In this document: positions 4,088 to 34,419 of the stretch, piece by piece | Numbering within the stretch: the stretch's first letter is position 1 | How the letters are laid out: each line of letters begins with the position of its first letter | From: Clostridiales bacterium | GTDB taxonomy: Bacteria > Bacillota > Clostridia > Christensenellales > Borkfalkiaceae | NCBI GenBank assembly: GCA_015069525.1 | Contig: SVIK01000001.1 | Coordinates: forward strand, 1 to 34,419 | Direction of reading: 5' to 3' | DNA length: 34,419 nt | Program-made: the position numbers and the translations under genes | The notes under the pieces: model-generated | What the model was told of the DNA's origin: nothing | The model's database searches: none | What the model saw: only the letters and a program-made list of their open reading frames with translations

Positions 4088-4117
4088 GTGATAGTAGGGC
4101 AACTTTTTCGTTGTGTA

Positions 4118-4146: not shown

Positions 4147-4165
4147 ATATATAAGAGGACGTCTT

Positions 4166-12856: not shown

Positions 12857-12895
12857 ACTATTTTCTCCTGAAAGAAATCATTGGTGTTGTTATAT

Positions 12896-14908: not shown

Positions 14909-14956
14909 GTGGTTAAAAAACCCAAAAATTTCAAAAAAATTGGAAAAATTTTGTTC

Positions 14957-14993
14957 AAAAGTGTTGACAAGTGGTTAAAAGTGGGTGTATAAT
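14957..14993 (+). promoter_or_regulatory. dcw promoter overlapped by three 10-bp-phased AAGTG[GT] repeats (MraZ-box-like)
   Basis: TTGACA (14964-14969), 18-nt spacer, TATAAT (14988-14993). Repeats: AAAAGTGTT (14957), ACAAGTGGT (14967), AAAAGTGGG (14977), at a 10-bp period. Confidence 0.55.
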
Positions 14994-15047
14994 AATATCA
15001 CGCATGAATTTTCGTTGCGCGAGATTGAAGTAAGGAGGAAACGTGAA

Positions 15048-15473: not shown

Positions 15474-15476
15474 ACG

Positions 15477-16415: not shown

Positions 16416-16474
16416 TACGAAATCCCGCTTGGTGAAGGTTAAGGAGTGGGAAAAAGAAACACGGAGGCACAGTT

Positions 16475-17110
16475 ATGGCATTTACGGCAGAGCTTGAAAG
16501 AGCGCAAACGTTGAACGCACAAAAAATCGCAGAAGAACATAATGCGATGATAAAAGAACGTTATCGCAGATTGCAAGATGCAGAAGCAGAACAATTTGCA
16601 AACTCTACGCAAGATTACACCGCGCAACAAACCCGCGCGTCTGTTTTCGCGCCCGTTGCGCCCACGTACGTGAACGCTCCTGCGGTGGAACAAACTCCGC
16701 AAGTGACGGAATTTGTACACGCTCGCGTAGAATCTCCCGTGTTTACGACGGAAAAATTTAACGGTATGCAACAAGCGGAAGCGGTAGCGGTTGCGCCCGT
16801 AGCCGTACAACCTATGCAAGTGGCGCACTATGCGCCTGCGCAAGCGGTAGAACAAGAAACGCAATTTGCTTTTACGCCGATGGCGAAGAAGATTTGTATT
16901 GCCTTTGCGGCGACGGTCACCGTAATGCTTTCGGTGATTGGTATCAACACGGGTATTATCAAGCGTAATGAAACGCGTATTCAAGATTTGGAAAGACAAG
17001 AACAGGCTTTGCGCCTTAAAAATGAGGATTTGGATAGACGTATCGAAGAAGCGACAAGCGAAGAAACGATTATCCAATACGCACAAGATAAGGGTATGAT
17101 TAAGGGCTGA
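16475..17110 (+). CDS. FtsL-like bitopic cell-division protein with a long N-terminal extension
   Basis: Position between rsmH and the PBP. Single TM segment (ICIAFAATVTVMLSVIGINTGII) followed by a coiled coil (RIQDLERQEQALRLKNEDLDRRIEE). About 135 aa of Q/A/V/P-rich sequence precedes the TM segment. Confidence 0.65.
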   Translation: MAFTAELERAQTLNAQKIAEEHNAMIKERYRRLQDAEAEQFANSTQDYTAQQTRASVFAPVAPTYVNAPAVEQTPQVTEFVHARVESPVFTTEKFNGMQQAEAVAVAPVAVQPMQVAHYAPAQAVEQETQFAFTPMAKKICIAFAATVTVMLSVIGINTGIIKRNETRIQDLERQEQALRLKNEDLDRRIEEATSEETIIQYAQDKGMIKG

Positions 17111-17304
17111 GAAAAGTCACTAATACGAATAAAAGAAGATTGCTCAATAACGGGTAATCTTTTTTTATTTGCGTTTTCCGTTTCGCTTGGTGTTTTTGGT
17201 TATCATTTCACCACTACTTTAATACAATAATATAGTAAAAAGTAGGGAGAATAAATATCATAAAAAAGAAAGAAACAGACAAAAATGCCTATTCCGTTTC
17301 CGTT

Positions 17305-19200: not shown

Positions 19201-21021
19201 ATGTGGAAAAACGACGTATTTGCTTGTGTTGACGGAAAGATGACTTTCGACGGGTACATAAAGGAATTGGAGAAATATCTTGTTGAAAATCACGTGACCA
19301 AACAGAACGTATGGGAACTGTTCGTGAAGCAATTTCGCGATAAAACGGATACTGACTGGCGTTGGCGTGGGGAATATTGGGGCAAAGCAATGCGTGGCGC
19401 CGCGATGCTTTATAAAGCAACGAAGGACCCTGCTATTTATGACGCAATGAAAGCTACGATAGAAGATTTGCTTTCCACGCAAGAGGAAAACGGTAGAATT
19501 TCTACCTATCCCGTATCGCTCGAATTTAACGGCTGGGATATGTGGGCGAGAAAATATATTATTTTAGGCAACCTGTATTTCTACGAGGTTTGCGAAGACG
19601 AAGCGTTTAAGGAAAAATTATTAAACGCGCTTGTAAAGCACGCCGATTATATCGTGGCGCACGTAGGCGAAGGGGAAGGCAAGAAACCCATTTTGAAAAC
19701 TTCGGACGCTTGGGGTACGATGAATTCTTGCTCCAATTTAGAGCCGTTTGTAAAACTTTACAAAATTACGGGCAAACCCGAGTATCTTGAATTTGCCGAA
19801 TATATCGTCAGCACGGGGCTTTGCGACGGGGCAAACTTGATTGACCTTGCTTTAAAAGGTATACCGCCTCATAAATATCCGCATCCCAAGGCATACGAGA
19901 TGATGAGCTGTTTCCAAGGCTTATTGGAATTGTATACCGTCACGCGTGACGCAAAGCAATTGGAAGCGGTTGTAAAATTTGCCGATTTGGTATACGATAA
20001 CGAAGTGACGATTATCGGGACGGCGGGTTATGAAGGGGAAATGTTCAGCCACGGCGCGCCTGGGCAAACGGAATATTCCGAGAAAGAGGTATTGGAAACG
20101 TGTGTGACGGTCGTTTGGATGAACCTTTGCTTCCGCTTGTTGGAAATCACGGGTGACGCAAAGTATGCCGATTGGTTGGAATGCGCTTCCCTCAACGCTA
20201 TGAACGGTAGCGTAAATAACAAAGACCAACTTTCTATTCGTTCGGCAAACTGGGACCCTCGCTACGTGGATGCAAGCTTGCCTATGGAAGAATGGCCGAT
20301 GTACACGGGCAAACGCCAAATTTTGCCTTTCGATAGTTATAGCCCGCTTGTAAATGCAAATAGAGGACAATTGATTGCCGGTTTCAATATCATGGAAGAC
20401 GAGCAAATTTACGGTTGTTGCGCATGTATCGGTGTGGCAGGGCTTGCGATGGAAGAACTGTTTGCCGTTATGAAAACGAAGAATGGATACGCAGTAAACC
20501 TTTACGAAGACACGATTGTGGAAACGAGCGATTGTCGTTTGTCGATTGTACGTGATAAAAAGACGTTTGCCGTGAAGATTGCAGTAGAGAGCGAAAAGGA
20601 ACAGACGTTGAAGTTGCGCGTTCCCACGTGGACGGAGGGTTATCAAGTCTTTGTAGACGGCAACGAAGTTGCGGTGGAAGAAAAGGACGGGTATTTCAAG
20701 CTTGCCGTACAAAACAACGTGGTGGAAATTGCGTTCAATGCGGTTGTGAAAATGCTGAAATATCACGATAAAATTGCCTTCAAGAAAGGACCTTACGTGT
20801 TGGCTCGCGACCAAAAATTAGGCGAGGATATCACTACGCCCGTTTCCCTCGCGGAAAAACTGACGATTAAAGCGTATAAGAACGAGCTTTTCGACTGTGA
20901 TTACGCTTATAAATTGCAAACGGCAGACGGAGAGATTACCCTTTGCGATTACGCACACGTTGGTAAGGAATACGATAGTGAGGATTGCAATATCAGCGTT
21001 TGGCTTGAAAAGAAAATGTAA
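19201..21021 (+). CDS. DUF1680 / GH127-like glycoside hydrolase (beta-L-arabinofuranosidase-like), cytoplasmic
   Basis: WRGEYWGKAMRGAAMLY resembles the DUF1680 N-terminal block. E299-T-C301 (LETCVTV, nt 20095-20103) and C406-C407 (YGCCACIG, nt 20416-20421) mirror the Glu/Cys3 zinc site and Cys nucleophile of GH127 HypBA1, as I recall it. No signal peptide. Confidence 0.65.
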   Translation: MWKNDVFACVDGKMTFDGYIKELEKYLVENHVTKQNVWELFVKQFRDKTDTDWRWRGEYWGKAMRGAAMLYKATKDPAIYDAMKATIEDLLSTQEENGRISTYPVSLEFNGWDMWARKYIILGNLYFYEVCEDEAFKEKLLNALVKHADYIVAHVGEGEGKKPILKTSDAWGTMNSCSNLEPFVKLYKITGKPEYLEFAEYIVSTGLCDGANLIDLALKGIPPHKYPHPKAYEMMSCFQGLLELYTVTRDAKQLEAVVKFADLVYDNEVTIIGTAGYEGEMFSHGAPGQTEYSEKEVLETCVTVVWMNLCFRLLEITGDAKYADWLECASLNAMNGSVNNKDQLSIRSANWDPRYVDASLPMEEWPMYTGKRQILPFDSYSPLVNANRGQLIAGFNIMEDEQIYGCCACIGVAGLAMEELFAVMKTKNGYAVNLYEDTIVETSDCRLSIVRDKKTFAVKIAVESEKEQTLKLRVPTWTEGYQVFVDGNEVAVEEKDGYFKLAVQNNVVEIAFNAVVKMLKYHDKIAFKKGPYVLARDQKLGEDITTPVSLAEKLTIKAYKNELFDCDYAYKLQTADGEITLCDYAHVGKEYDSEDCNISVWLEKKM

Positions 21022-21028
21022 ATATATG

Positions 21029-21063
21029 ACAGCCGTATCGAATACAGCGATACGGCTGTTTTA
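21029..21063 (+). terminator. Rho-independent terminator
   Basis: Stem ACAGCCGTATCG (21029-21040) / CGATACGGCTGT (21048-21059), then TTTTAA. Confidence 0.8.
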
Positions 21064-21172
21064 ATGCGTGGTAAACGATATTTAGAGTACTAAAAAGGAA
21101 AAAGTATAAGAGCTTCTTGACATTTGTTAAAAAGTGTGTTAAGATAGATAAAAATTTTGGTGGGATAGAAAA

Positions 21173-23206
21173 ATGGACTTTATTTGGCTCAAAGAAGAAG
21201 AAAATAATTCGTACGCGCAGTTCAAGGCGAATTTCGATTATAAAAAGGGAAACGTAAAATTATCCGTTTCCGCCGATTATAAGTATGAGGCATACGTTAA
21301 CGGCGTTTTGGTGAGTAATTGCCAATATGCCGATTTACCTACCTATAAGAGCGTAGATAGCGTAGATATTACCGCTTTTCTCCAAAAAGGAAATAACGAA
21401 TTGACGATAACGGCATTCCATATGGGAGAAGATTTCTCTTCTTGTCGTCCGCAGACGGCAGGGGTTGCTTTTAGCGTAGAAAACGAGGGAAAAACGCTTG
21501 TCAAATCGGGCGAAGATACGCTGTGTCGTAAGGCAAAAGGCTACCGCCCTGGCGGTATTATCACGGCGCAACTTGGCTACGGTTGGAATTACGATTGTAC
21601 GGACGAGGGGGGAGCTTGGGAAAAGGCACGTTTAACCAAGGCTGAAAATACGCTTGTGCCCCGTCCTATCCCCGCACTTGCGATTGGAGAACCGATGCCT
21701 GTCGTCGTTTGCGCACAAGGTATTTTTCAATACCGTGAAGGAAAAACGGCAGGGGAAAAGGCGCAAAACGCGTGGCTGTCCACTCTGCGTTTTGCGGGAA
21801 TGACGGGAAAAAATAAAATTACTTCCGCCGATTTGCATGTACCGGTGACGTTTAAGGCAAACGGTGGCGACGGCGTTTTCGTTATCGTCGATTTGCAAAA
21901 GGAAACGAGCGGTTATCCCGTGCTTTCCGTTACGGTAGATAAACCTTGTAAAGCAATCTTTGCTTGGGGCGAACATCTTGCCGACTTACGTATCCGTGCA
22001 GAGCGCGAAGGACGTAATTTTGCTTCGGAATACACGTTCAAGAAAGGGGAAAACGCTTTTGCGGGATATATTCACCGTTTAGGGTGCAGATACCTTTGTT
22101 TATTCGTGGAAAACGACGAGGTGACGATAAATACCTTGACGGTGCGTGAGGCTACGTATCCGTTTAAGATGCCGAAAAAGGATTTCGGGGATAGATTGCT
22201 CAACCGCATTTACGAGGTGGGGCGTAGAACGATGCAAATTTGTGCACACGAGCATTATGAGGATTGTCCTTGGCGGGAGCAAGCGCTTTACGGCATGGAC
22301 GCACGCAATCAAATGTTGTTTGGCTACGGTGCGTTTGAGGAATACACGTTGCCCCGTGCCGTGCTTCGTTTACAGGCGTATTCTACCCGAGAAGACGGTT
22401 TGCTTTCCCTTTGTGCACCTTCTCGCGCAAAAATTTGTATTCCTTCGTTCAGCTTGTATTGGGCGATTGCCGTATATGAAAACGCACAGGTGGATTACGA
22501 CGAGGCTTTCGTGAAAGAAATGCTTCCCTACGCTGATAAGATTCTAGAGAATTTTAAGCGTCGTACGACGGAAGCCGGCGTGACCTGCTTTAAGGAAAAA
22601 GACTATTGGAATTTCTATGAGTGGAGCGAGGGCTTGGACGGCGGTACTATCTTCCGTGAATACGAAATAGAGGAAACGACGGACTGTATTTTAACGACGC
22701 TTTCGTTTATGGCTTCGCGTGGCGTTGCAAAGCTGTATAAGCGTGTGGGAGATACGGCGCAAGCGGAAAAGTGGTTGCATTACGCGGAAAAAGTGCAAGG
22801 CACGATAGAGGCGTTTTACGATAAAGAAAAAGGCTTATACGCTTCGTTTATTAAGCAGGGAGAAAAGTACGGTTGGCATGCGCATACCCAAGCGATTGTA
22901 TTGCTTGCCGATATCCCCGAGGAGAGAAAGGATTCTCTTTGCGAGGTCTTAAAAAATCCCGATGGGAAAGTAGTGGATATGACGTTTGCCGCGTTGCAAT
23001 TTAAATACGACGCTATCGTTGCGTGCCAAGGGGATATAAATTGGTGCGTGGACGATATTTGTAAACTGTTTGGAGATATGCTTTTCCAAGGCGCAACCAG
23101 CTATTGGGAAACGGCTTTGGGTGAGGCGGATTTTGACGATGCGGGCAGTCTTTGTCACGGCTGGTCTGCCGTTGGTTGCTACGTTTTCGATAAATACCTG
23201 AAATAA
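21173..23206 (+). CDS. GH78-like alpha-L-rhamnosidase-related protein, cytoplasmic
   Basis: N-terminal rhamnosidase-N-like block (YKYEAYVNGVLVS...DITAFLQKGNNELTI). Six-hairpin domain block HYEDCPWREQALYGMDARNQ. C-terminal SLCHGWSAVG. No signal peptide. Confidence 0.6.
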   Translation: MDFIWLKEEENNSYAQFKANFDYKKGNVKLSVSADYKYEAYVNGVLVSNCQYADLPTYKSVDSVDITAFLQKGNNELTITAFHMGEDFSSCRPQTAGVAFSVENEGKTLVKSGEDTLCRKAKGYRPGGIITAQLGYGWNYDCTDEGGAWEKARLTKAENTLVPRPIPALAIGEPMPVVVCAQGIFQYREGKTAGEKAQNAWLSTLRFAGMTGKNKITSADLHVPVTFKANGGDGVFVIVDLQKETSGYPVLSVTVDKPCKAIFAWGEHLADLRIRAEREGRNFASEYTFKKGENAFAGYIHRLGCRYLCLFVENDEVTINTLTVREATYPFKMPKKDFGDRLLNRIYEVGRRTMQICAHEHYEDCPWREQALYGMDARNQMLFGYGAFEEYTLPRAVLRLQAYSTREDGLLSLCAPSRAKICIPSFSLYWAIAVYENAQVDYDEAFVKEMLPYADKILENFKRRTTEAGVTCFKEKDYWNFYEWSEGLDGGTIFREYEIEETTDCILTTLSFMASRGVAKLYKRVGDTAQAEKWLHYAEKVQGTIEAFYDKEKGLYASFIKQGEKYGWHAHTQAIVLLADIPEERKDSLCEVLKNPDGKVVDMTFAALQFKYDAIVACQGDINWCVDDICKLFGDMLFQGATSYWETALGEADFDDAGSLCHGWSAVGCYVFDKYLK

Positions 23207-23230: not shown

Positions 23231-23276
23231 AACAAGGAGTTTGGCTTTTTTACCAAACTCCTTGTTTATTTTTTGT
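23231..23276 (+). terminator. Rho-independent terminator
   Basis: 14-bp stem AACAAGGAGTTTGG (23231-23244) / CCAAACTCCTTGTT (23253-23266), then TATTTTTTG. Confidence 0.85.
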
Positions 23277-23372: not shown

Positions 23373-24329
23373 ATGGAGAAAAAAACGAGAAACGAGAAGA
23401 AAATTTATGCATTAAAAACGAAAAGCATGCCTCGTGTCAGCTTTGCGGTAATTAGCCGTGAAACGCTTGAAAAGGTTGATAAAATAGAGGATAACGGTTT
23501 TGTTTGTGTTCGATACGTAGATACGGGAAAAATGGACGTCGCTTTTCAATACGGACCAAAATTTACCGTTAAAGCTGGCGAATATTGCATTTACCCGCGC
23601 AAAAGCAAATCGCAAACGGTAATACATAAAAATACGACGACGACGCTTTTTTCTTTCTTTATTGACGAGGGAGAGGATAAACTTATCAATTCTTCCGAGG
23701 TGTTGTTTGAAAAGTCGGATAACTATAAATACGTGGACATTGAAAGCTTATTCATTTTGCAAACGGGAAAAATCACGCCGTCTGACCGAGCTTATTCCGA
23801 ATTGAAGCAGTTGGTTCATCGATACGACGCAATTGGAGAATATACGAACGCGAACGTGTCTATGCACGCTTGGAATTTCTTGTTGTGGCTCGCCAACGCA
23901 CAAATAAACGATATAAAAGGGAATAAAGAGGAGAAAAAGAATAGCGTAGAAAAATATTGCGATAGAATTGACGAATATATCGAAAAGAATTATATGATGC
24001 CGATTACGATGACGACGATTGCCGATTTGCTTGTTTTGCATGAAAATTACATTAGTCGTATTTACAAGCAAACGCGCGGATTGACGGTGGTTGAACATTT
24101 GCGAAACGTACGTATCGAAAAGGCAAAAGAATTGTTGTTGCAAAACAAATATACGATTGCGCAAGTGGCAAAGGCAGTCGGCTTTTTAAACGTGAAATAT
24201 TTTATCGCCGTATTCAAAAAAGTGGAAAGTGTTTCCCCTGGGAAATATTATCGCAATCTTTTCGAACGTCGGTTGTATTCTTACGACAAACCTGAATATC
24301 TCGATTATTCAAACGACGAGATTTTGTAA
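23373..24329 (+). CDS. AraC-family transcriptional regulator
   Basis: C-terminal double HTH (ITMTTIADLLVLHENYISRIYKQ...IAQVAKAVGFLNVKYFIAVFKK...SPGKYYRN). N-terminal sensor-like domain. The start is uncertain because the RBS is weak. Confidence 0.85.
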   Translation: MEKKTRNEKKIYALKTKSMPRVSFAVISRETLEKVDKIEDNGFVCVRYVDTGKMDVAFQYGPKFTVKAGEYCIYPRKSKSQTVIHKNTTTTLFSFFIDEGEDKLINSSEVLFEKSDNYKYVDIESLFILQTGKITPSDRAYSELKQLVHRYDAIGEYTNANVSMHAWNFLLWLANAQINDIKGNKEEKKNSVEKYCDRIDEYIEKNYMMPITMTTIADLLVLHENYISRIYKQTRGLTVVEHLRNVRIEKAKELLLQNKYTIAQVAKAVGFLNVKYFIAVFKKVESVSPGKYYRNLFERRLYSYDKPEYLDYSNDEIL

Positions 24330-24513: not shown

Positions 24514-26001
24514 ATGGCAAGAAAGAAACGTATTATTTCCTGTGCATTAACGGGCGTACTTGCACTTTCGTCGGTAGGGGCGCTCGCTGGGTGCGACGCT
24601 TTGACGGGTGAAAACGTTATTTGGATAGCGTTTGCTGAAACTGGGTATGGCCGTGGATTCTTGGAACAATGGTGCAAAGATTTCCAAGAAAAATATCCCG
24701 AAGAGGAATACGTCTTTGAATTGGAAGGCGAGCCTGGCATGACGGGGGAAATTCAAACGCGTTTGACGACGGATAACGAAATTCCCGACTTGTTTTTCAG
24801 TTTGGATACGAACTGGCAAGAATGGGCGGCTCGTGGATATTTGTATCCGTTGGACGATATTTACCGCAAATCGAAAGCAGACGGAGATAAATCGGTTTGG
24901 GAATTCATGAACAAAGACTTGCGTGATTATGGTGTTGTAAATGGACACTACTACGCAATTCCTTGGACGGACGGTGCAAACGGTTTTATCTATAATAAGA
25001 CGTTGTTTGACGAAAACGGCTGGGAAGTTCCTGAAACGGTAGAGGAATTGTACGAGCTTTGCGATAAAATCAACAATCTTCCTTGCAATAAAGATGCCGA
25101 CAAAGAAAATAACATTGCCGTTTTCGCTTGGTCGGGTAAATATGCAAGCTATTGGGATTTCGTAGTGGAAAACTGGTGGGCGCAATACGAAGGTGCGGAC
25201 GAATTTAGAGATTTCTTTAACTTTGGAGCCCCGAAGAATGAAGACGGCACGTTCAAGTTTGAAAGCAATAATGCATCGCCTTCTGATTACGGTTCTCCTG
25301 AGGTGTATTTGCAAGAAGGTCGCGTAAAGGCGTTGGAAGTTTATAGAAACTTGGTTGTAAATGAAAACTCAACCTTCCCGAAAAACTCCATTTCTGGTGC
25401 GGTCGGTGCGGAATACACGGTTGCTCAGCTTGCGTTCATCAACGGAAAAGCGGCGATGATGCCTAACGGTGCATGGCTCGAACAAGAAATGGCGGAGGTT
25501 ATGCCTGACGATTTCGAAATGCGTTTGATGCGTACGCCGTATTTGGAAGAAGCGAAGAAAGATAAAGACGGTAATTATATTCCCATCAACGCGTCTTCCG
25601 CGGGGGACTTCTTCTGTATTCCCAAAAACGCTCCCAACTTGGAAGCGGCTTTGAAGTTCATGGAATACATCAACTCTCGCGAGGCGTGCGAAACGTTCAC
25701 CCGCGTGACCGGTGGTATTCGTCCTTTCCAATATATTGACGATTTGGATTTGGACAGCATGAATTTAAGTGAATTCTCTAAATCGTGCATCGAAGTATAT
25801 AGAGAAAGCACGACGGTATATCACTATTCCAGCAACCCGATTCAATGGGTGAGCACGTTTGGCAAATGGCCTGACCTTGGTAGCCCTTACGTAGGTATGA
25901 TTAGTGACCCTACGGAAAACACGCCGGCTGCGGTATGCTCGAAGAGTTGTGATTACGTGTATAGAGAATGGTGGAACTCCTACAATTTAGTTAACCAATA
26001 A
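24514..26001 (+). CDS. Carbohydrate ABC transporter substrate-binding lipoprotein
   Basis: RBS AAGGAG. Signal peptide with lipobox LAGC. About 495-aa family-1-type solute-binding protein, followed by permease genes. Confidence 0.85.
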   Translation: MARKKRIISCALTGVLALSSVGALAGCDALTGENVIWIAFAETGYGRGFLEQWCKDFQEKYPEEEYVFELEGEPGMTGEIQTRLTTDNEIPDLFFSLDTNWQEWAARGYLYPLDDIYRKSKADGDKSVWEFMNKDLRDYGVVNGHYYAIPWTDGANGFIYNKTLFDENGWEVPETVEELYELCDKINNLPCNKDADKENNIAVFAWSGKYASYWDFVVENWWAQYEGADEFRDFFNFGAPKNEDGTFKFESNNASPSDYGSPEVYLQEGRVKALEVYRNLVVNENSTFPKNSISGAVGAEYTVAQLAFINGKAAMMPNGAWLEQEMAEVMPDDFEMRLMRTPYLEEAKKDKDGNYIPINASSAGDFFCIPKNAPNLEAALKFMEYINSREACETFTRVTGGIRPFQYIDDLDLDSMNLSEFSKSCIEVYRESTTVYHYSSNPIQWVSTFGKWPDLGSPYVGMISDPTENTPAAVCSKSCDYVYREWWNSYNLVNQ

Positions 26002-26016
26002 TAAAGAGAGTTGTTT

Positions 26017-27291
26017 ATGAAAGAAAGCGTAAAAAATAAACGCCAAACCCGCGTACATATAGGGGGGTGGGTCTCTCCCAAACCTGCCCAAGAAGTGGGT
26101 GGCGAAGATTTTTGCACGGTTGCGCAATATAAATTAATGAAAGAAAGCGGTATCCGTACGGCGTACGCTATTTACGAACGTAGTGCTGTGGACGTCGACG
26201 GGAAAAACGCAAACGAACGTGCGTTGGCTTGTGCCGAAAAAGCGGGAATGCAGTTTTACGTATGGGACACAAAAGTTCGCGACCTTATGCTTGAAGGTGA
26301 TGAAACCGCTGTCAAGGAGTATTTAAAGAAATACACCAAATTTAAATCGTTCAAAGGCGTTTTGATGAAGGACGAGCCAACGAAAGAGGATTTGGTATGG
26401 TGCAAAAAAATCGTAGACGTGTGGGATAAGTATTTGCCCGACAAAGATTGTTTTATGAATCTTTTTCCCGAGCACGTGCTAAAAGAAGATTGTAAACTTG
26501 CTCAAGACGATACGTTTGAAGACGATTACCTTAATGCGTTTATGGCAATGAACGTTAAACGACTTTCGTACGATTTATATCCTTTGATGTACGACGATGA
26601 CGGTAAGCCTACGATTCAAAAACATTATCTTCATAATTTAGAGCTTTGCGCAGAGGTAGCGAAGAAGAAGGGAGTACCCCTTTGGACGTTTATTCAATCC
26701 ATGAGTTTTACTCGTTGGCATCGTCGTCCGGATGAATCGGCTTTGCGTTGGCAAATTATGAGTGGTTTTGCATACGGGGTAAAGGGGATACAGCATTTCT
26801 GCTATTGGCCCCCGACGGAAGACAAATTATTGACGGTGAACGATGCGTTCTTAAACCCGCAAGGCGAACCGACGGATATCTATTTCACGGCGCAAAAGAT
26901 ACATAAAGAGATTGAAACGTTTGAAAAAGAATTCGTGACCTATGATTATGAAGGCGTTATGCCGATTTTAGGAGATGGGGCGAAGGAAAACGCTTTTTAT
27001 GAAACGTTGAACTGTCCTTTGAAGAGCCATGCGCTTATCCGTTCCGTTTCTGCAACGCAAGATACGCTTTTAGGTGTTTTAAAAAACGAAAAAGGCAAGA
27101 ATGCCTTCTTCCTTGCGAACTTTGCCGACCCTATTTTACAGCTTTCTAGCGAAGTAAAGCTTTGCTTAAACGGGGTGGAAAAAATTAAAGTTTCGCAAAA
27201 CGGAAAAACCCGCCGTATAAAAGCAAAAGACGGAATGTTTACTTTCGTTCTTGGCGCAGGCGACGGCGCGTTTATCCAAATCATCAAGTAA
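26017..27291 (+). CDS. Uncharacterised TIM-barrel glycosidase-like protein without signal peptide (paralog 3 of 4)
   Basis: Start set at ATG 26017 (AAGAGAG upstream); the listed ORF begins at TTG 26011. Family blocks: LMKDEPT (DEP at nt 26371-26379), NLFP, LSYDLYPL, PLWTFIQS, AYGVKGIQHFCYWP, C-terminal LGAGDGAFIQIIK. Confidence 0.8.
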   Translation: MKESVKNKRQTRVHIGGWVSPKPAQEVGGEDFCTVAQYKLMKESGIRTAYAIYERSAVDVDGKNANERALACAEKAGMQFYVWDTKVRDLMLEGDETAVKEYLKKYTKFKSFKGVLMKDEPTKEDLVWCKKIVDVWDKYLPDKDCFMNLFPEHVLKEDCKLAQDDTFEDDYLNAFMAMNVKRLSYDLYPLMYDDDGKPTIQKHYLHNLELCAEVAKKKGVPLWTFIQSMSFTRWHRRPDESALRWQIMSGFAYGVKGIQHFCYWPPTEDKLLTVNDAFLNPQGEPTDIYFTAQKIHKEIETFEKEFVTYDYEGVMPILGDGAKENAFYETLNCPLKSHALIRSVSATQDTLLGVLKNEKGKNAFFLANFADPILQLSSEVKLCLNGVEKIKVSQNGKTRRIKAKDGMFTFVLGAGDGAFIQIIK

Positions 27292-27371
27292 ATTTATACG
27301 GCAAAGCCGTTTGTCCTTGGAGAGGGACGAAAAAAACTACTACGAATATTACGTTATAGGAGTTTTTGTCT

Positions 27372-28400
27372 ATGGAAAACAAGAAAATGCAGTCCGACAA
27401 ACCGGTTGGTGGCAATATTGAAGTAGATTACAAGGACTTGAAACCCTTTTTGTACGAAGAGGATAAGGTAGATTATCAACCAGTTATCCCCAAAAAGAAG
27501 AGGATGGCAACGTCGAAGAAAATTTTCATTATCACGATGTTGGCATATCCCATTTTGCACTTCCTTATCTTTTGGGTATACATTAACTTTAATACGATTC
27601 TTAAATCGTTCCAAGGTTTTTCGTATAAAACTGGCGACGAAGTTTTTGTAGGCATGAAGAATTACATAAACTTCTTTAAAGCATTTAGCTCGGAATCGGG
27701 GCAATTAAAACACGCAGTAGTCAATTCATTGCTATTCTTCGTGTTTAACAACTTTGTATTATTGCCGGTATCCATGATATTTGCTTACCTGCTTTTCAAG
27801 AAAGTGTTTATGGAAAAAGTTTTCCGTATCATATATTTCTTGCCGAATATTATCTCGGTTGTTGTATTGACGATGGTATTCAAGTTCATGTTCGATAATG
27901 AATTTGGCCCGCTGTTCAGTATAATGGAAAAGATAGGGTTGAAAATGCCTGAGAACGGCTTCTTTGGGACGGAAGGCACGGCGATGATTATGATATTCGT
28001 CTACTGTTTGTGGGCAGGTATCGGCTATAACGTACTTTTGCTTTCTGGTACGATAGCAAGAATCCCGACGGAAGTATTGGAAGCTGGTAAAATTGACGGC
28101 ATCGGGATGGTAAGAGAGTTCGTTCAAATCGTAGTTCCTCTTATTTTCTCGACGGTATCCACGTTGTTCGTGACGGGCTCCATGGTCATGTTCACACTCT
28201 TCTTGCAACCAATGTTGTTGACGAAGGGTGGACCGGATAACTCCACGTATACGCTGGCATATTACATTGTAGAACAAGTTAACAACAACCGTTTGTACGA
28301 CGCAGCGGCGGCAGGTATTATTTGTAGCGTTGTAGGTATTCCTATTATCCAAGGTATCAAGTCGATAATGGAAAAACTTACGCCCGACGTAGAATTCTAA
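27372..28400 (+). CDS. Carbohydrate ABC transporter permease (MalF/LplB-like)
   Basis: ATG 27372 lies 9 nt after AGGAG (27358-27362); the listed ORF starts at TTG 27366. Multi-TM protein with EAA loop LEAGKIDGIGMVREFVQIVVPLI. Confidence 0.85.
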   Translation: MENKKMQSDKPVGGNIEVDYKDLKPFLYEEDKVDYQPVIPKKKRMATSKKIFIITMLAYPILHFLIFWVYINFNTILKSFQGFSYKTGDEVFVGMKNYINFFKAFSSESGQLKHAVVNSLLFFVFNNFVLLPVSMIFAYLLFKKVFMEKVFRIIYFLPNIISVVVLTMVFKFMFDNEFGPLFSIMEKIGLKMPENGFFGTEGTAMIMIFVYCLWAGIGYNVLLLSGTIARIPTEVLEAGKIDGIGMVREFVQIVVPLIFSTVSTLFVTGSMVMFTLFLQPMLLTKGGPDNSTYTLAYYIVEQVNNNRLYDAAAAGIICSVVGIPIIQGIKSIMEKLTPDVEF

Positions 28401-28470
28401 TTTAGATAACACGAAAAGGGAATATGGATTTCCCAAGAATGCTTATAAATAGATTATAAGGAGAAAAAGA

Positions 28471-31400
28471 ATGAGAAAAAGCTTTATGAAAAAGTTATTT
28501 GCCACGTTGGCGGTTGCAACTTTTGCAACCGTCGGCGCAGGCGTTGCGTTTACAAATAACACGAAAGAAGCCTCAGCGGATACGGGCGTAATTTCTACGG
28601 ATTTTTCGTCTGCGACTTTGCCTACTGGCTTATCGATTACGAATTCAAGCGCTATTGTGGCTGAAAATGGGGAGCTTAAATTTAATACAGGCATTATATC
28701 AGGCGCGTCTATTGTGACGACGCAACAATACACAAACTTTGTGTTGGAATACGATTTAAACTTTACCTCTGGTGAATGGGCTCCCATTGTTTACTTTGGT
28801 AATGGCACAAGCACTGTGCATACTGAAAGTGCGTTTATTTATGTAAATGCATGGGGTGCGGTTGCAAATAGATATAACAATGCGGACAATACGATGTTTG
28901 CTGCGTTTCTTCCTGGTTCAATTAATCCGTATGCCTCTGGGGCTAAAACGCACGTGAAAGTGACGGTTCAAGCAGGGGCGGTCACGCTTACGTTGAAAGA
29001 CCTTGCGACTAATGCGGTTTATGAAAATCAAGTAGCGACTGGAATTAACAAGACAGGTGTCGTAGGTGTTCCTTCTTCGGGAAATGCGGTGTTTTCGATT
29101 GATAACCTTTCCATAACCAATTTAGATACGGCTCAAACAGTTCCTACGCCTCCTGCAACGACGGTGAAAGGTACTTCGTTGAATAATTGTGATTATTTAG
29201 GCGGTTGGTATGGTACCAATGGCACGTGCGCGCTTGATACAGAAATAAAATCGCAAGGTACAGGGTCCTTAAAGCATACGTTATCGGCAGGCAATTATTT
29301 TATCGTAATGGTAAGAGATTATTCTAATGGTGACGCAGAGTTAACGTTAGAACAGCTTTTGGCATACGACGGATTGTATTTTGAAGTATATAACCCTGGT
29401 TCTGCGGTAGATTTAAAATTCTTTAACTCCTCTACTGTTGCAACGACGTTGCAAACGGGGTGGAATCAAGTGACGATTTCTAAGGCGAATATTCAATCGG
29501 CAATTGACGCTAATGCAGAGCAATTTGTTGGAGGCGAATTCCGCTTTACTATCGGTGGCGACGCGACAATCTATCTTGACAACGTAATGGGTATCACGCC
29601 AGCTTCGTCAGGCGGGGATAGTGGTTCTACTGATAATTGGACGTTGGACACCTCTGTTTGGTCGATAACGCATACGAATGCTATTACGCAAACGACGGGA
29701 GCGCTCTCGTTTGTGACGGGCGCTGATGCTGTTACGTACGATGGCGCGGCGATTGTGACAAACTCGTCTTATACCAATTTCCAATTGGAATTTGACATGT
29801 CGGCTACCGCGTCTGGTGGTTGGCTTCCCATTGCATTTTTCGGCGCAACGGAAAGCAACATGTATTATCATAACAACTTCTTGCACATTAACGATTGGGG
29901 CGCTCTTAAGCAACTCAACATTTCAGCTGATACTGCAGACATTGTTGACTTGAACACGAGTAACGTTAGCCCGTATACCAACCGTATTCCTAATGGCGAG
30001 CAAATTCATGTAAAGCTTGTTGTAAATAACGGAAACGTCGTATTGACGCTCACGAAAGGGACGGGGACATTCTCAAAAACGTTGTATACAGGAATTAATG
30101 TGACGGGTAAAGTAGGTATTCCTGCTACGATTAATTCCAATTTCAATATTTCTAACGTGACGATTACCGATTTGGGTGAATCCGGTGGCGAGGGCGGCGG
30201 AACGACGCCGGAAACGCCCGTAGGGGAAGGCTCGACGGCGTATACGAAATTTGACGGCGCAGTTGATTCTAATTGGGCGATAACGGGCGGCACGCGTGTA
30301 AGCGTTTCCAACGGGCAACTTGTATATGCAAACAATACGGCAACGGGTGACGGCATTTATACGACGGGTAAATACACCAACTTTATTTTGGAGTATGATA
30401 TCACGCCTACCCTTATCAATCAACCTGTGGAGGACCCTCAGACTGGTTGGATTCCCGTAATTATGTTCAGCGTAGGCGATAATGCCAATATTGGTGGCGC
30501 TAACAATTTCGTCTATATGAACCAATACGGTGCAATCGTAGGGCTTAATCCTAGTGGACAAAATATCTTTACACCAGCATTAGTGGGTTCACCACATTCT
30601 GCAATTGTTAATACAACGACGCACGTTAGGGTAGAAGCGCAAGACGGTACCGTGACGGCATATTTTAAGAGAGGTAGTCAAGAGACTTCGTTTGTAATTG
30701 GCAATGGCCTTAATACGACGGGTAGAGTTGGTATTCCCGTATCGGCGGAAACTGGCTTGATTATCGATAACCTTGTAATCGTCAATTCTGACGAATATGC
30801 AGATTATCAAGTAAATAAAATCACGTTGGCAAACGATGGCCCGCAAGCAAACGCAAACGAAACGCTTACAGGCAACCTGTTGGATGAAATTAAGAGAAAA
30901 GCACAAGCAGACGGTATTGATATTACCAATAAGTCGTTTGTGTTCCGTTCTAAGACAGACGGATTCTTCCTTGATTCCAAAACGGGTGAGTGGGAATATA
31001 CGGTTGGACCTTACAACGGTTTGAAGGAACTTGAATACGTTATTACCGTTAATGACCTTGTGCTTGACGGATGGGTATATCCGCTCGGCAATAGAGGTAT
31101 GTATACGATTGAAGGAAATATTGCGGTCACCATCATTGGTGGCATGGACGACCCTAACGAAGGTGGTGAAGGTGGTGGCGCTGGCGACACGAGCGAACTT
31201 CCTGTTATTGTTGGGGATAACGTTGTAGAACACGTTCAAGGTAAAGTGCAAGACGTATCTTTCATTATCGATACGAAATCTTATAAAATTACCCGTATAA
31301 CGTATAACACGGAAAACGTTAAGGTTGCTGCTTATACTTTGGAAGAAGTAGAGGAAGGCATTAAGTTGACGTTCAAAGGCGACTTCGTGGCGCTTTTGGA

Positions 31401-32676
31401 AAAAATAGGCGATAACGAATTTAAAATTGAAACGATTAAAGGTTTTGTGGATGCTATTATTCGGGTAAAAGTTTTGGAAACGCCCGAAATCATCGATGGA
31501 AATTCCGCGGAAATGTGGAAGAATTATGAAACGGACGCTGTGTTTAATCTTAACACGTTTGAATTGCCGATTCTTTCCATCCTCCGTACAGGTGCGTCCT
31601 CGGCGCTCAATAGCGATGCATACACGTATGCAGACGGCGTTTTAACGATTAAAAAGGAATATCTTGCAACGTTGGATGCAAGTGACGACGCTTACCGTTT
31701 CAGTATTTATACGGACGGTGGTAGCGTATCCGTAAACGTGACGATTAAATTTGCCGAAGAACCTTACGTAGACCCTGAATCAGCAGAGTTCACGCTTGGT
31801 AGCGAAAACGACGTTGAATTCGAGTTGGATACGATGGGGGCGCCTATTGTGCAAATCGTTCGTGATAACGAAGAAAAGGCGCTTGGTGATAACGCTTATG
31901 CTTTCGATGCAGACGCAATGTCGTTGACGTTTAAAAAGGAATATCTTGCGGCACTTGGCGCTGGTGAATACGAATTCACGATTACGACGCCTGGTGGGGA
32001 TGCAGTTGTGACGATTACGGTACTTCCTGGCGACGGACCTACGTGTACCGACAACAAAAAGAACGCAACGTTTGGTGAAAATGCGAATGTTTCGTTTACC
32101 GTTAACACCAACGGCCAAGCGATTGTGGCTATTCAAAGAACGGGTGCTACGTATGGGCTTGGCGAGGATGCATATACCTATGAAAACGGCACGTTGACGA
32201 TTGTTGGCGACTACGTTGCATTGCTTCCTTTGGGAGAAAACGAATTCACGTTGGAAACGGCAAACGGCTCTATTAAATTCTACATTAACGTAGTAGAAGA
32301 AACGCCCGAAAATCCTGACAATCCTGACAATCCTGATAATCCCGAAGACCCCGAAGACGGTGAATACGAAGGCGGGGAATACGAGGAAGATAATAAGGAT
32401 AACCCCTTCGAGGAAGACATTACGAATCCCGATGAAGGAGAAGAACCTATTGACCCCGAAGAACCTGATGACGGAGGAAATAGCGGTAGCGGTTCGTATG
32501 AAGACGAATTCACCGGTTCTGTTAAACCTAGTGAAGATTCCTACAATAAATATCTTGAAGGACTCGAAAACGGTGGTCAAGTATCCGGCGGTTGCAACGG
32601 TTCCCTTTCTATGGTAGCAGGTTTGCCCGTAGTGGGAATTATCGCTTGGTTGATTCGGAAAAAGAAAGAGGACTAA
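28471..32676 (+). CDS. 1401-aa modular cell-surface protein: signal peptide, three ConA/DUF1080-like lectin modules, a CBM-like module, four X2-like Ig modules, an acidic stalk and a C-terminal membrane anchor
   Basis: RBS AAGGAG. Signal peptide aa 1-36 (..KEASA|DTG). Lectin-like modules at aa 37-218, 389-568 and 588-772 share YTNF.LE(Y/F)D, GW.P(I/V), F.(Y/H)(V/I/M)N..GA, H(V)(K/R)V, TG.VG(V/I)P and DNL/SNV.I. CBM-like module at aa 231-375. X2-like repeats at aa 911-1002, 1005-1094, 1100-1185 and 1192-1275. Asp/Glu/Pro-rich stalk at aa 1276-1350. C-terminus GGCNGSLSMVAGLPVVGIIAWLIRKKKED. Confidence 0.85.
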   Translation: MRKSFMKKLFATLAVATFATVGAGVAFTNNTKEASADTGVISTDFSSATLPTGLSITNSSAIVAENGELKFNTGIISGASIVTTQQYTNFVLEYDLNFTSGEWAPIVYFGNGTSTVHTESAFIYVNAWGAVANRYNNADNTMFAAFLPGSINPYASGAKTHVKVTVQAGAVTLTLKDLATNAVYENQVATGINKTGVVGVPSSGNAVFSIDNLSITNLDTAQTVPTPPATTVKGTSLNNCDYLGGWYGTNGTCALDTEIKSQGTGSLKHTLSAGNYFIVMVRDYSNGDAELTLEQLLAYDGLYFEVYNPGSAVDLKFFNSSTVATTLQTGWNQVTISKANIQSAIDANAEQFVGGEFRFTIGGDATIYLDNVMGITPASSGGDSGSTDNWTLDTSVWSITHTNAITQTTGALSFVTGADAVTYDGAAIVTNSSYTNFQLEFDMSATASGGWLPIAFFGATESNMYYHNNFLHINDWGALKQLNISADTADIVDLNTSNVSPYTNRIPNGEQIHVKLVVNNGNVVLTLTKGTGTFSKTLYTGINVTGKVGIPATINSNFNISNVTITDLGESGGEGGGTTPETPVGEGSTAYTKFDGAVDSNWAITGGTRVSVSNGQLVYANNTATGDGIYTTGKYTNFILEYDITPTLINQPVEDPQTGWIPVIMFSVGDNANIGGANNFVYMNQYGAIVGLNPSGQNIFTPALVGSPHSAIVNTTTHVRVEAQDGTVTAYFKRGSQETSFVIGNGLNTTGRVGIPVSAETGLIIDNLVIVNSDEYADYQVNKITLANDGPQANANETLTGNLLDEIKRKAQADGIDITNKSFVFRSKTDGFFLDSKTGEWEYTVGPYNGLKELEYVITVNDLVLDGWVYPLGNRGMYTIEGNIAVTIIGGMDDPNEGGEGGGAGDTSELPVIVGDNVVEHVQGKVQDVSFIIDTKSYKITRITYNTENVKVAAYTLEEVEEGIKLTFKGDFVALLEKIGDNEFKIETIKGFVDAIIRVKVLETPEIIDGNSAEMWKNYETDAVFNLNTFELPILSILRTGASSALNSDAYTYADGVLTIKKEYLATLDASDDAYRFSIYTDGGSVSVNVTIKFAEEPYVDPESAEFTLGSENDVEFELDTMGAPIVQIVRDNEEKALGDNAYAFDADAMSLTFKKEYLAALGAGEYEFTITTPGGDAVVTITVLPGDGPTCTDNKKNATFGENANVSFTVNTNGQAIVAIQRTGATYGLGEDAYTYENGTLTIVGDYVALLPLGENEFTLETANGSIKFYINVVEETPENPDNPDNPDNPEDPEDGEYEGGEYEEDNKDNPFEEDITNPDEGEEPIDPEEPDDGGNSGSGSYEDEFTGSVKPSEDSYNKYLEGLENGGQVSGGCNGSLSMVAGLPVVGIIAWLIRKKKED
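31201..32295 (+). repeat. Four tandem ~85-92-aa X2-like (Ig-fold) protein repeats inside the surface-protein gene
   Basis: nt 31201-31476, 31483-31752, 31768-32025, 32044-32295. Shared pattern: DV.F.L.T.G..I..I.R.G...L..DAYTY..G.LTI.K.YLA.L..GE.EF.I.T..G.....I.V. The divergence is at protein level only; these are not DNA-identical repeats. Confidence 0.7.
32311..32355 (+). repeat. Five in-frame 9-bp tandem units (NPD NPD NPD NPE DPE)
   Basis: AATCCTGAC, AATCCTGAC, AATCCTGAT, AATCCCGAA, GACCCCGAA, followed by a 15-bp duplication GGTGAATACGAAGGC / GGGGAATACGAGGAA (32359-32388). Confidence 0.85.
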
Positions 32677-32740: not shown

Positions 32741-33586
32741 ATGAATAAGTCAAAAACGGAAAAAATTGTGCTTTGGATAACGTTCGTTATCTTTGCATTA
32801 TATGCTATCAGCTTGTTGTATCCCGTTTTTTGGTTGATAACAAACTCATTAAAGCAAACTAAGGAATTCGGTGCGGACCCGTTCGGATTCCCTAAGAGTT
32901 TCTATATGAAGAACTATGTGGACGCCTTTTCCCTTACGGTTGGCAGAACGAAGATACTCGGTATGTTTGTAAACAGCGTTATTCTCGTTGTTGGTTGTAC
33001 GCTTGTTAGCGTCTTCGTTCCTGCAATCACGGGCTACGTTGTTGCTAAGTTTGAATTCCCTGGGCGTAAGCTTTTGTACGGCGTTGCAATTTCTTCCATG
33101 TTGATTCCCGCCGTTGGTACGTTGACGGCAACCTATCAATTGATGGTAGACTTGCGTCTTTATAACAGCTACATAGGTATTATCATTATGTCAAGTGGCG
33201 GTTTCGGCTTCAACTTCGTTATGGTGTACGGTTTCTTTAAGAGCATTTCCAAAACGTATGCAGAAGCGGCGATGTTGGACGGTGCGGGGGAATACAAAAT
33301 CTTCTTTAAGGTTATGTTGCCTCAGGTCAAGCCTTCGTTGATTGCAATTGGTATTATTGCCGCAATCAACTATTGGAACGACTATTTCACGCCGTATATG
33401 TACTTGCGTCAACATCCTACGATTGCCGTTGGTTTGCAAAAGATTGTAGACAAAGTACAAGCGAACAACACGTGGCCTCAATTGTTCGCAATCATGTTGA
33501 TTTCAATTTTACCTCCCGTGGCGATTTTCATTGCGTTCCAAAAGACGATTATGGAAAACACCGTTGCTGGTGGTTTGAAAGGCTAA
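32741..33586 (+). CDS. Carbohydrate ABC transporter permease (MalG/LplC-like)
   Basis: RBS AAGGAG. Six TM segments. EAA loop AEAAMLDGAGEYKIFFKVMLPQVKPSL. Confidence 0.88.
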   Translation: MNKSKTEKIVLWITFVIFALYAISLLYPVFWLITNSLKQTKEFGADPFGFPKSFYMKNYVDAFSLTVGRTKILGMFVNSVILVVGCTLVSVFVPAITGYVVAKFEFPGRKLLYGVAISSMLIPAVGTLTATYQLMVDLRLYNSYIGIIIMSSGGFGFNFVMVYGFFKSISKTYAEAAMLDGAGEYKIFFKVMLPQVKPSLIAIGIIAAINYWNDYFTPYMYLRQHPTIAVGLQKIVDKVQANNTWPQLFAIMLISILPPVAIFIAFQKTIMENTVAGGLKG

Positions 33587-33606: not shown

Positions 33607-34419
33607 ATGAAAGAGCAAAAAAATTCGGCGTGGTACGCGCGTATTAACAAGAAAAAAATCGGCGCATTGCTTTTATCGGCATGCATGCTTGGCTCCTTCG
33701 TGGGTTGTTCTACCGGTTCTAATACGGAATCGCTTAACAGCACTTCCAACCCTTTCTATCAAGGAGCAGGGGAAACGAACGGCTCGTTAGGCGATTACGA
33801 AAATGGTAATCCCGTTGGCGGTTCTTCCTCCTCTGGCGGGAACGTGAGCGATTATGAAACGGAAGACGTGGTAAGCGGTACGACTACGGATAAGACGACG
33901 GAGGATTTTGAAACGGAAACGCCCAACATGGGGGACACCACGACTTCTACGGGCAAATGGGAAGACTACGTTGGCGACGAGGACGAAAGCGTATACTTGC
34001 AAACCAAGCTTAACGACGACCCGTATAGAACGCAAGGCGGTTATTCGTATTTCTACCACTATCAACACGGTCCTACGACGATGCCCATTTCGGCATGGTC
34101 GCCTCCGCCTCCCAATTTTGGTGACTTTACGACCAACCAAATCACGCTCGCTAACTATCAAAAGATGGCAGATGCAGGGTTTAATACGGCTTACGGTCTT
34201 TACGAAGTTTTAAGAGGTGTTGTTGACGTAGATAAACGGAACGTCACGAACGCATTGACGTATGCAGACCAAGTGGGTATGGTTTATTATGTAAAAGACA
34301 GCTCCGCTCTCGGTAATTTGTCGGATAACGGTTCTGTTGCTTTGGATAACTATTACAGTTGGTACATGAATCGAAAGGCATACGGCGGTACGTTGACGGA
34401 AGACGAACCTGGCATGGAG
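33607..34419 (+). CDS. Lipoprotein member of the uncharacterised TIM-barrel glycosidase-like family (paralog 4 of 4), 3' end cut by the window edge
   Basis: Not in the supplied ORF track because it has no stop. ATG 33607 lies 8 nt after AAGGAG (33593-33598) and the frame is open for 271 codons to 34419. Signal peptide with lipobox FVGC. About 110 aa of Ser/Thr/Gly/Glu/Asp-rich linker. Then family blocks MPISAWSPPPP, YQKMADAGFNTAYGLYE, ALTYADQVGMVYYVKD, LTEDEPG (DEP at 34402-34410). Confidence 0.8.
   Translation, partial: MKEQKNSAWYARINKKKIGALLLSACMLGSFVGCSTGSNTESLNSTSNPFYQGAGETNGSLGDYENGNPVGGSSSSGGNVSDYETEDVVSGTTTDKTTEDFETETPNMGDTTTSTGKWEDYVGDEDESVYLQTKLNDDPYRTQGGYSYFYHYQHGPTTMPISAWSPPPPNFGDFTTNQITLANYQKMADAGFNTAYGLYEVLRGVVDVDKRNVTNALTYADQVGMVYYVKDSSALGNLSDNGSVALDNYYSWYMNRKAYGGTLTEDEPGME

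Follow-up and report, generated by a model that had tools for sequence, protein, structure and literature searches.

Firmicutes, and among them the Clostridia, are major degraders of gut fibre, and the way in which they hold polymers at their surface is much less understood than it is for the Sus-like systems of Bacteroidota. In the latter, surface glycan-binding proteins (SGBPs) such as SusE/SusF, SGBP-B and the SGBP of the levan utilisome carry non-catalytic binding modules, tandem beta-sandwiches, and are encoded inside the uptake locus. The Gram-positive polysaccharide utilization loci (gpPULs) outlined for Roseburia and Eubacterium bring together a regulator, an ABC transporter and glycoside hydrolases (GHs) in one locus, along with surface proteins that bear carbohydrate-binding modules (CBMs) (PMC5320581). 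At the level of the domain, one paper equates DUF1080 with CBM66, which is non-catalytic and binds fructan ends, a Firmicutes precedent for a glycan-end-binding module of the DUF1080 type (PMC5673643), and the characterised DUF1080 enzymes BT2 and AL2 are 3-keto-glycoside lyases/hydratases (bioRxiv 10.1101/2024.03.25.586180). Here we analyse a 34,419-nucleotide stretch of a Clostridiales bacterium (contig SVIK01000001.1, positions 1 to 34,419, forward strand; hereafter the window), which includes the gene for a 1401-aa modular surface protein that we label BIG (28471-32676, + strand).

Like the gpPULs, the BIG locus has a regulator, an ABC transporter, glycoside hydrolases and a surface protein with putative sugar-binding modules; however, the CBMs described in gpPULs are usually appended to LPXTG- or SLH-anchored enzymes, whereas BIG is large, lacks a recognisable catalytic domain, lies between permease genes and has another type of anchor. 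It resembles the Bacteroidota SGBPs in the features given above, but has no lipobox (the signal peptide contains no Cys), no SusC/SusD pair and no outer membrane, and has instead a C-terminal transmembrane (TM) tail and an ABC importer as its partner. The comparison with SusD/SusE-type proteins would hold as a functional analogy only, and not as homology of the whole proteins. We consider it fairly probable that BIG is a non-catalytic, C-terminally anchored, multivalent protein that captures glycans at the surface together with the co-encoded CUT1 ABC importer; its display at the surface, its binding of glycans, the identity of the substrate and its cooperation with the transporter are all suggested by fold and context. 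The strategy is already known, and BIG is most likely a rare, fast-evolving form of it, from a family confined to a small, uncultured clade.

The homologues, the conserved synteny and a G+C content like that of the window (0.447 versus 0.435) identify BIG as a real gene. Its open reading frame (ORF) starts with ATG, and its homologues match it over the full length or over the core. The ORF and every module that an initial annotation of the sequence had listed for it are present. Only two hydrophobic segments were found by hydropathy, at aa 9-27 in the signal peptide, which is 69-78% identical among homologues and whose cleavage site was placed by eye, and at aa 1377-1395 in the C-terminal helix. 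BLASTP comparison of each module with the protein revealed internal repeats far beyond chance. In the signature attributed to the three ~180-aa modules (A1, A2 and A3), YTNF (aa 87, 434 and 635) and TG.VG.P (aa 195, 545 and 750) occur in all three copies, but GW.P only in the second and third (aa 450 and 659), with EWAP in its place in the first; LNNCDY is found at aa 237, GTGSLKH at 263 and IYLDNV at 367. Assignment of the modules to unrelated families had been named beforehand as the outcome that would speak against a lectin-like protein; the domain searches gave no such assignment for BIG.

Modules A1, A2 and A3 are mutually 29-38% identical (BLASTP E 1e-20 to 1e-32), and the whole protein reaches 35.4 bits (cutoff 26.8) in two stretches against Pfam PF06439 (3keto-disac_hyd, formerly DUF1080). 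A profile built from seven ~180-aa modules of BIG and its homologues retrieved solved DUF1080 structures from the PDB, namely 4JQT at 1.6e-6 as well as 8V31, 3U1X and 3S5Q. A3, the copy kept in every member of the BIG family, was modelled by AlphaFold together with the following module U (pLDDT 79.9, pTM 0.69). Foldseek searches with this A3 model placed GH16 lichenases on top and also returned 4JQT (E 1.6e-7), the DUF1080 protein BT3469 (E 1.6e-7), CBM66, the lectin region of SraP, chain 8A9Y_E of the levan utilisome (E 1.4e-5), the L-type lectins ERGIC-53, VIP36 and Emp46p, and legume lectins. Because the A3 model matches ConA-like lectins and glucanases, the reading of A1-A3 as divergent DUF1080/ConA-like jelly rolls is supported; it had been proposed from the letters alone and is now backed by a Pfam score above cutoff, by the profile search of the PDB and by the AlphaFold and Foldseek results. 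With BsCBM66 of Bacillus subtilis SacC (4B1M/4AZZ), the A modules have in common the jelly-roll fold (Foldseek target-normalised TM 0.62-0.69 to 4B1M), a similarity of fold only, as neither the 4B1M nor the 4AZZ chain was retrieved by the A-module profile search of the PDB at E<=10. Unlike CBM66, the A modules are very divergent and triplicated, and sit on a membrane-anchored stalk rather than being appended to an enzyme.

The remaining jelly roll of the head had been described as CBM-like. From ten aligned copies of this module in the BIG family, AlphaFold gave a confident structure (pLDDT 90.5, pTM 0.85) that matched the jelly rolls of CBM8/22/30/11/6/29/16/59 and of the xyloglucan SGBP-B in Foldseek searches of the PDB (E 7e-5 to 1e-3), with SGBP-B Bacova_02650 (5E7G) at E 1.4e-3. 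The model thus bears out the CBM-like label, and with high confidence aa 234-378 are predicted to adopt a CBM-type fold that is like those of many CBM families and belongs to none of them. A sequence profile of this module gave best matches at E 0.3-1 in the PDB, none of them significant; a weak match to a PAS-domain chain at E 0.12 in the searches with the CBM-like and U modules was dismissed as chance.

Between this head and the stalk lies module U, the ~120-aa module that had been left unassigned. U is a rare domain: an exhaustive HMMER search of 1.84 billion representatives matched it in only 12 proteins, which comprise members of the BIG architecture family (P0002, P0004-P0006, P0009-P0011) and giant adhesin-like proteins made of He_PIG/Big_9/cadherin repeats. 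Single repeats of the latter score 9-18 bits against the U profile, one alignment covering U positions 18-116, and the similarity to He_PIG/VCBS repeats is weak but recurrent, with an hhalign probability of 43% against Ig/cadherin-type repeats. In the A3-U model, U is composed of beta strands and one helix, and in every case it stands directly behind the last DUF1080-like module, without a linker. By sequence it had no significant match in the PDB, and the top 50 Foldseek matches of the didomain were all to the larger A3 domain. These weak profile matches refine the assignment of U to a probable Ig-like domain of the cadherin/He_PIG type, held with moderate rather than firm confidence. The four X2-like Ig modules of the initial annotation stood up well: CBM_X2 (PF03442) matches the whole protein at 48.2 bits (cutoff 28.9) in three stretches, modules 2-4 score 23-28 bits each, and module 1 is linked to the other three by BLASTP (E 2e-8 to 6e-7). 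These ~90-aa copies are mutually 31-42% identical (E 1e-7 to 1e-15). The stalk that follows (aa 1279-1372) consists of 21% E, 15% D and 13% P (49% Glu+Asp+Pro) and is 70% identical in P0002, the closest relative.

The operon runs from the AraC regulator through the solute-binding protein (SBP), a 426-aa protein, permease 1, BIG and permease 2 to a lipoprotein. The same permease-BIG-permease arrangement recurs in eight related loci of Ca. Scatosoma-like Clostridia (BIG between permeases in L001, L002, L004/5, L006, L007, L008 and L009); L001 is a metagenome-assembled genome of Ca. Scatosoma sp., Clostridia, and the closest relatives come from Clostridia. BIG is indeed flanked by both permease genes, as first described, but the word "inserted" used for it was misleading because each of the eight related loci examined has this order. 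A recent arrival of the gene by insertion or horizontal transfer was rejected since the G+C content is native and the gene order conserved in the eight loci, and the position of BIG between the permeases is ancestral. The genes on either side share 86-94% identity with those of the closest relative; BIG shares only 55% and has one head module swapped, the A2 position being occupied in P0002 by a CBM-like module. Identity to the relatives rises from the head (36-52%) through the stalk (60-72%) to the tail (95%), the pattern expected for an exposed tip that determines specificity.

According to custom HMMs, the family has a constant core, A-U-X2x4-(0 to 17 FN-like repeats)-acidic stalk-tail, and a variable head that combines A, CBM-like and a third, "T" module. 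Family members measure 1374-2882 aa, except for the more distant P0011 (856 aa), which lacks X2 modules. The longer relatives (P0003-P0006; L007 6129-14777; L008 9484-17817) carry, after the X2 modules and ahead of the acidic stalk, 3-17 tandem FN3-like repeats of ~75-88 aa (consensus PVVTLNGNVASWTAVxGAxxYxY); the BIG of the window has none, and stalk length is therefore highly variable. Two genes downstream of BIG in relatives (L001 18397-21897, L002 17616-21599), beyond the point at which the window ends, lies a gene for a second large surface protein (1166-1327 aa) with an N-terminal jelly-roll-like region, six X2 modules, long Ala-rich helical repeats and the same Gly-Cys tail.

In the mechanism that we favour, BIG would be exported via its Sec signal peptide and anchored at or within the cytoplasmic membrane through its C-terminal Gly-Cys/TM/Lys-rich tail, and the acidic Pro/Asp/Glu linker, the four X2 Ig modules and the cadherin-like Ig module would lift it through the wall. 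Its tip would present four putative sugar-binding jelly rolls, three of them DUF1080/CBM66-like ConA folds without the lyase site and one CBM-like. BIG would be transcribed with an AraC-controlled CUT1 ABC importer (SBP and two permeases) and with an extracellular lipoprotein of an uncharacterised family; it could concentrate a polymeric substrate at the surface, where oligosaccharides would be released and passed to the SBP and on to the transporter. Because GH78-like and GH127-like genes are neighbours, this substrate may be a glycan bearing rhamnose and arabinofuranose.

Several observations weigh against a non-catalytic glycan-capture protein of this kind. No recognised secreted endo-enzyme was found in the locus, where the only candidate is the uncharacterised lipoprotein family. 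Single A modules reach 14.9-18.9 bits against PF06439, below the Pfam cutoff, and membership of BIG in that family is therefore a distant, summed similarity; the sequence of the CBM-like module matched no CBM family, nor any Pfam family at E<=1, and its Foldseek TM-scores are only 0.42-0.56. ConA-like folds also serve for protein binding, BoNT Hc-N being among the Foldseek matches of A3, and for catalysis, as in GH16.

The last point leads to the view of BIG as an enzyme, in which one or more DUF1080-like modules would have 3-keto-glycoside lyase/hydratase or GH16-like glycanase activity at the cell surface, or U would hold a new activity. The Pfam family is named 3-keto-disaccharide hydrolase, its characterised members BT2 (BT2157) and AL2 are lyases/hydratases of the same family and fold (8V31) as the A modules, and GH16 lichenases head the matches of A3. 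BT2157 has conserved active-site and metal residues at E103, N134, E164, Q166, Y190, K245, Q273 and H275 (bioRxiv 10.1101/2024.03.25.586180; the 8V31 chain index is this numbering minus 19), and a probe search found that the solved DUF1080 chains have the C-terminal motif G-x-I-x-L-Q-D-H-G in common. HMMER alignments indicated that in all three A modules EYQ (E164, Q166) is replaced by N-[QAD]-[YW]-G, LQDHG (Q273, H275) by G-[IV]-P-[VSA]-[SST], which is the TG.VG.P signature of the initial annotation, and N134 by Trp (in GW.P), while the loop with E103 is deleted; in the homologues, too, these features are replaced or missing. The mapping comes from low-scoring alignments anchored by flanking strands, K245 could not be mapped, and the equivalent of Tyr190 is kept in A1 and A2. 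Although the A modules also keep E-x-D (in LEYD), the GH16 motif ExDxE is incomplete (E-Y-D-x-[TNS]), its third Glu being Thr, Asn or Ser. The 3-keto pathway further needs a NAD-dependent oxidoreductase, and neither a Gfo/Idh/MocA oxidoreductase nor an isomerase-like lyase was found in Pfam scans of nearly all window ORFs of at least 150 aa or in the gene tables of the related loci; NAD chemistry outside a monoderm cell is in any case implausible. The catalytic DUF1080 enzymes are single-domain periplasmic proteins, whereas BIG is predicted to be extracellular and multi-domain, and module U, with 124 aa, resembles Ig repeats. Pfam searches of the whole protein and of each module, together with PDB sequence searches, recognised no catalytic domain in BIG, in agreement with the first description. 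The caveat that it attached, that DUF1080-type catalysis might occur, can be narrowed: because the defining lyase residues are replaced and no partner oxidoreductase is encoded, catalysis by the known DUF1080 route appears unlikely, and we regard an enzymatic role of any kind as very improbable. The aromatic residues at the former catalytic positions would fit a conversion to a binding cleft.

SraP of Staphylococcus aureus has a legume-lectin-like module followed by cadherin-like modules. It resembles BIG as a Gram-positive surface protein of this layout on a long stalk, and raises the question of whether BIG is an adhesin, with a lectin-like head that attaches to mucus or epithelial glycans of the host, or to the surface of other microbes or food particles, and serves colonisation rather than nutrient capture. 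Foldseek aligned the A3-U model to the ligand-binding region of SraP (4M00; E 8.8e-7, 436 columns), although with an rmsd of 15 Å, so that only the lectin fold is common to both. The likeness of U to the cadherin/He_PIG repeats of giant adhesin-like proteins, the fast divergence of the head and the 0-17 FN-like stalk repeats, typical of adhesins under host or phage pressure, would be consistent with such a role. However, SraP is an LPXTG-anchored serine-rich-repeat adhesin exported by the accessory Sec system, and BIG has neither feature; in all eight loci it is flanked by the two permease genes of a sugar importer under AraC control, next to GH78-like/GH127-like genes, which argues for a role tied to the substrate of the importer. 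Attachment to a dietary polymer would, moreover, be compatible with nutrient capture, and adhesion as the primary function seems unlikely. The constant position between the permease genes would favour co-assembly of the TM tail with the permeases, with BIG as a structural scaffold or spacer for a surface complex of permeases, lipoprotein enzyme and second X2 protein, in which the jelly rolls bind proteins. X2 modules are typical of cellulosomal scaffoldins. BIG carries such modules (PF03442), relatives encode downstream another X2-rich protein that ends in this tail, and ConA/LamG folds are able to bind proteins. Nevertheless, Pfam scans of the whole protein and of each module detected no cohesin, dockerin or SLH domain, and a cellulosome-type scaffold was rejected for want of any cohesin or dockerin at E<=1; a variable CBM-like head is also hard to reconcile with fixed protein partners that are 77-94% conserved. 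We therefore give the scaffold only a small chance, one a little below that of an adhesin, and retain multivalent glycan capture as the favoured function of BIG.

Table 1. Features of the BIG gene, its protein modules and the surrounding operon (nucleotide positions in the window)
Feature	Position	Strand	Basis or remark
GH127-like and GH78-like (alpha-L-rhamnosidase-like) genes of the same conserved locus	19201..23206	+	Pfam; 2OKX RhaB; synteny
AraC-family regulator heading the operon	23373..24329	+	HTH_18 and HTH_AraC
Lipoprotein SBP, lipobox LAGC	24514..26001	+	SBP_bac_8, SBP_bac_1; resembles carbohydrate ABC solute-binding proteins
426-aa protein of uncharacterised family	26011-27291	+	operon member
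ABC permease 1 (MalF/UgpA type), directly upstream of BIG	27366..28400	+	BPD_transp_1; NCBIfam similarities
Ribosome-binding site AAGGAG	28458..28463	+	read directly from the sequence; 7 nt before the BIG ATG
BIG gene, stop codon included	28471..32676	+	ORF list; homologues P0002-P0006, P0009-P0011; conserved synteny
Signal peptide, Sec-type, aa 1-36 (MRKSFMKK / hydrophobic core aa 9-27 / EASA, cleavage, DTG)	28471..28578	+	hydropathy peak 1.92 at aa 9-27
Module A1, DUF1080-like ConA-type jelly roll, aa 37-220	28579..29130	+	paralogous to A2 and A3; PF06439 14.9 bits alone; family profile matches solved DUF1080 structures
CBM-like beta-jelly-roll module, aa 234-378, no CBM family assigned	29170..29604	+	AlphaFold and Foldseek
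Module A2, DUF1080-like, aa 385-570	29623..30180	+	BLASTP repeats; PF06439 17.7 bits; family profile
Module A3, DUF1080-like, aa 587-775	30229..30795	+	AlphaFold didomain model; Foldseek; architecture table
Module U, probably cadherin/He_PIG-like Ig with inserted helix, aa 772-895	30784..31155	+	HMMER, profile matches, model
Four X2-type Ig modules, aa 910-1278	31198..32304	+	Pfam CBM_X2; BLASTP
Acidic Pro/Asp/Glu/Asn stalk and conserved pre-anchor segment (SYEDEFTGSVKPSEDSYNKYLEGLENGG), aa 1279-1372	32305..32586	+	composition
C-terminal tripartite tail, aa 1373-1401: GGCNGSL motif, TM helix aa 1377-1395, RKKKED	32587..32673	+	hydropathy; tail comparison
ABC permease 2 (MalG/UgpE type), directly downstream of BIG	32741..33586	+	BPD_transp_1; NCBIfam similarities
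Lipoprotein of the same family as the 426-aa protein	33607-34419, cut by window end	+	after permease 2

The C-terminus is the best-conserved part of BIG, its last 62 residues being 95% and 73% identical to those of relatives. The hydrophobic anchor proposed for it corresponds to a TM helix and can be described more precisely as a conserved Gly-Cys/TM/Lys-rich tail that is common to unrelated proteins: the consensus is [KG]-G-C-x-[GS]-S-[LVI], then the TM helix, then a [RK]KKK cluster. The Gly-Cys motif is invariant in all 14 complete C-terminal tails seen, which belong to three unrelated protein types, namely the BIG family, the second large X2/coiled-coil protein downstream in relatives and an unrelated 140-aa-repeat protein (L002 2-1687), each with an acidic or low-complexity linker ahead of the tail. 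There is no LPXTG-like motif near the C-terminus of BIG, and TIGR01167 (LPXTG) scores 13.1 bits against a cutoff of 15.9. All of the curated CTERM models applied to BIG-type tails (LPXTG, MYXO, Synerg, Loki, PEP, GlyGly and others) remained below cutoff, the best score being that of Synerg-CTERM on one relative (15.8 versus 22.5). The known C-terminal sorting classes were consequently rejected for BIG, which we file under no known sorting signal.

The tail nonetheless recalls the Cys-containing CTERM signals (MYXO/Synerg/JDVT/CGP, processed by CPBP myxosortases) in its three parts, a short Gly/Ser-rich motif that includes an invariant Cys, a TM helix and a cluster of basic residues, in following a low-complexity linker and in being common to unrelated proteins of one lineage. 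It differs from them in that its basic cluster is Lys-rich, not Arg-rich, and that its host is a monoderm gut Clostridia bacterium (Ca. Scatosoma-like); Firmicutes, Clostridia and Bacillota go unmentioned in the preprint that describes these four signals (bioRxiv 10.1101/2023.06.07.544157). From these sequence comparisons, the Gly-Cys tail is a candidate for a new sorting signal of the Cys type, here in a monoderm host. The only CPBP in the window, a CPBP/Rce1-like intramembrane protease (2806-3642; PF02517, 68 bits), lies 25 kb from BIG and scores 16-34 bits against the Mrt (myxosortase) models, whose cutoffs are 75-325; with only generic CPBP similarity and at this distance, it was rejected as the cognate sorting enzyme.

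A more speculative scenario, which we hold to be doubtful as a whole, joins two linked novelties in monoderm Clostridia, an undescribed Cys-type C-terminal sorting signal and a Gram-positive utilisome built around BIG. The Gly-Cys tail may be processed in the manner of MYXO-/Synerg-CTERM, possibly leaving a lipid-modified Cys and tethering a set of surface proteins. The utilisome may consist of a fast-evolving multivalent lectin stalk, based on the new DUF1080-like plus Ig didomain and docked by its tail onto the permeases of the flanking genes, and together with a new family of surface lipoprotein enzymes BIG may capture a complex glycan.

Apart from BIG itself, the neighbourhood revealed further features of the locus. 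The GH78-like protein matches 2OKX RhaB at 1.1e-36. A perfect 14-15-bp, strong bidirectional terminator hairpin lies between the GH78-like gene and the AraC regulator (23231-23266), so that the hydrolases and the transporter are probably transcribed separately. From the SBP gene to the end of the window, the + strand has no terminator-like site whose stem exceeds 7 pairs. An ATPase gene is lacking from the BIG operon. Another ABC uptake system (8330-13429, - strand) comprises an SBP, a pair of permeases and a TOBE-domain ATPase, beside an HTH-cupin regulator.

The 426-aa protein and the terminal lipoprotein belong to an uncharacterised ~425-570-aa family with four paralogues in the window (1376-2680, 5649-7142, 26011-27291 and 33607-34419), two of which have lipoprotein signals. 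The family is marked by the motifs KDEP, SYDxYP and AYGAKG, has no Pfam or PDB sequence match and has only ~13 relatives, all of them annotated as "hypothetical"; as two copies lie in the BIG operon, its members are candidates for a new glycoside hydrolase family, although these relatives gave no clue to the substrate. A Schlafen AlbA_2/HATPase_c_4 protein and a 238-aa ORF without a family match (4022-5551 and 7570-8286) are encoded between paralogues of this family.

The glycan locus seems to be embedded in the cell-division and cell-wall (dcw) cluster (window 14117-19023; L001 22021-25724, L002 21722-24942), with murI-like, mraZ, rsmH, ftsL/divIC-like and PBP genes directly upstream in the window, and murE-mraY-murD directly downstream of the glycan locus in relatives. 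In L006 (457-3972) and L008 (1-1444), the homologous locus is closely preceded by large serine recombinase genes (Resolvase/Recombinase), a hint that in these two genomes it may lie on or beside a mobile element.

If BIG does bind glycans, it would provide a clear case of a large, enzyme-free, multivalent binder hard-wired into an ABC importer operon. It would also represent a new CBM-like family and a divergent new branch of the DUF1080/CBM66 fold that serves as a lectin, and the head-swapped members of its family (1374-2882 aa) would form a natural series for mapping specificity. Should the Gly-Cys tail be confirmed as a processing signal, the range of Cys-type sorting signals would come to include monoderm bacteria.

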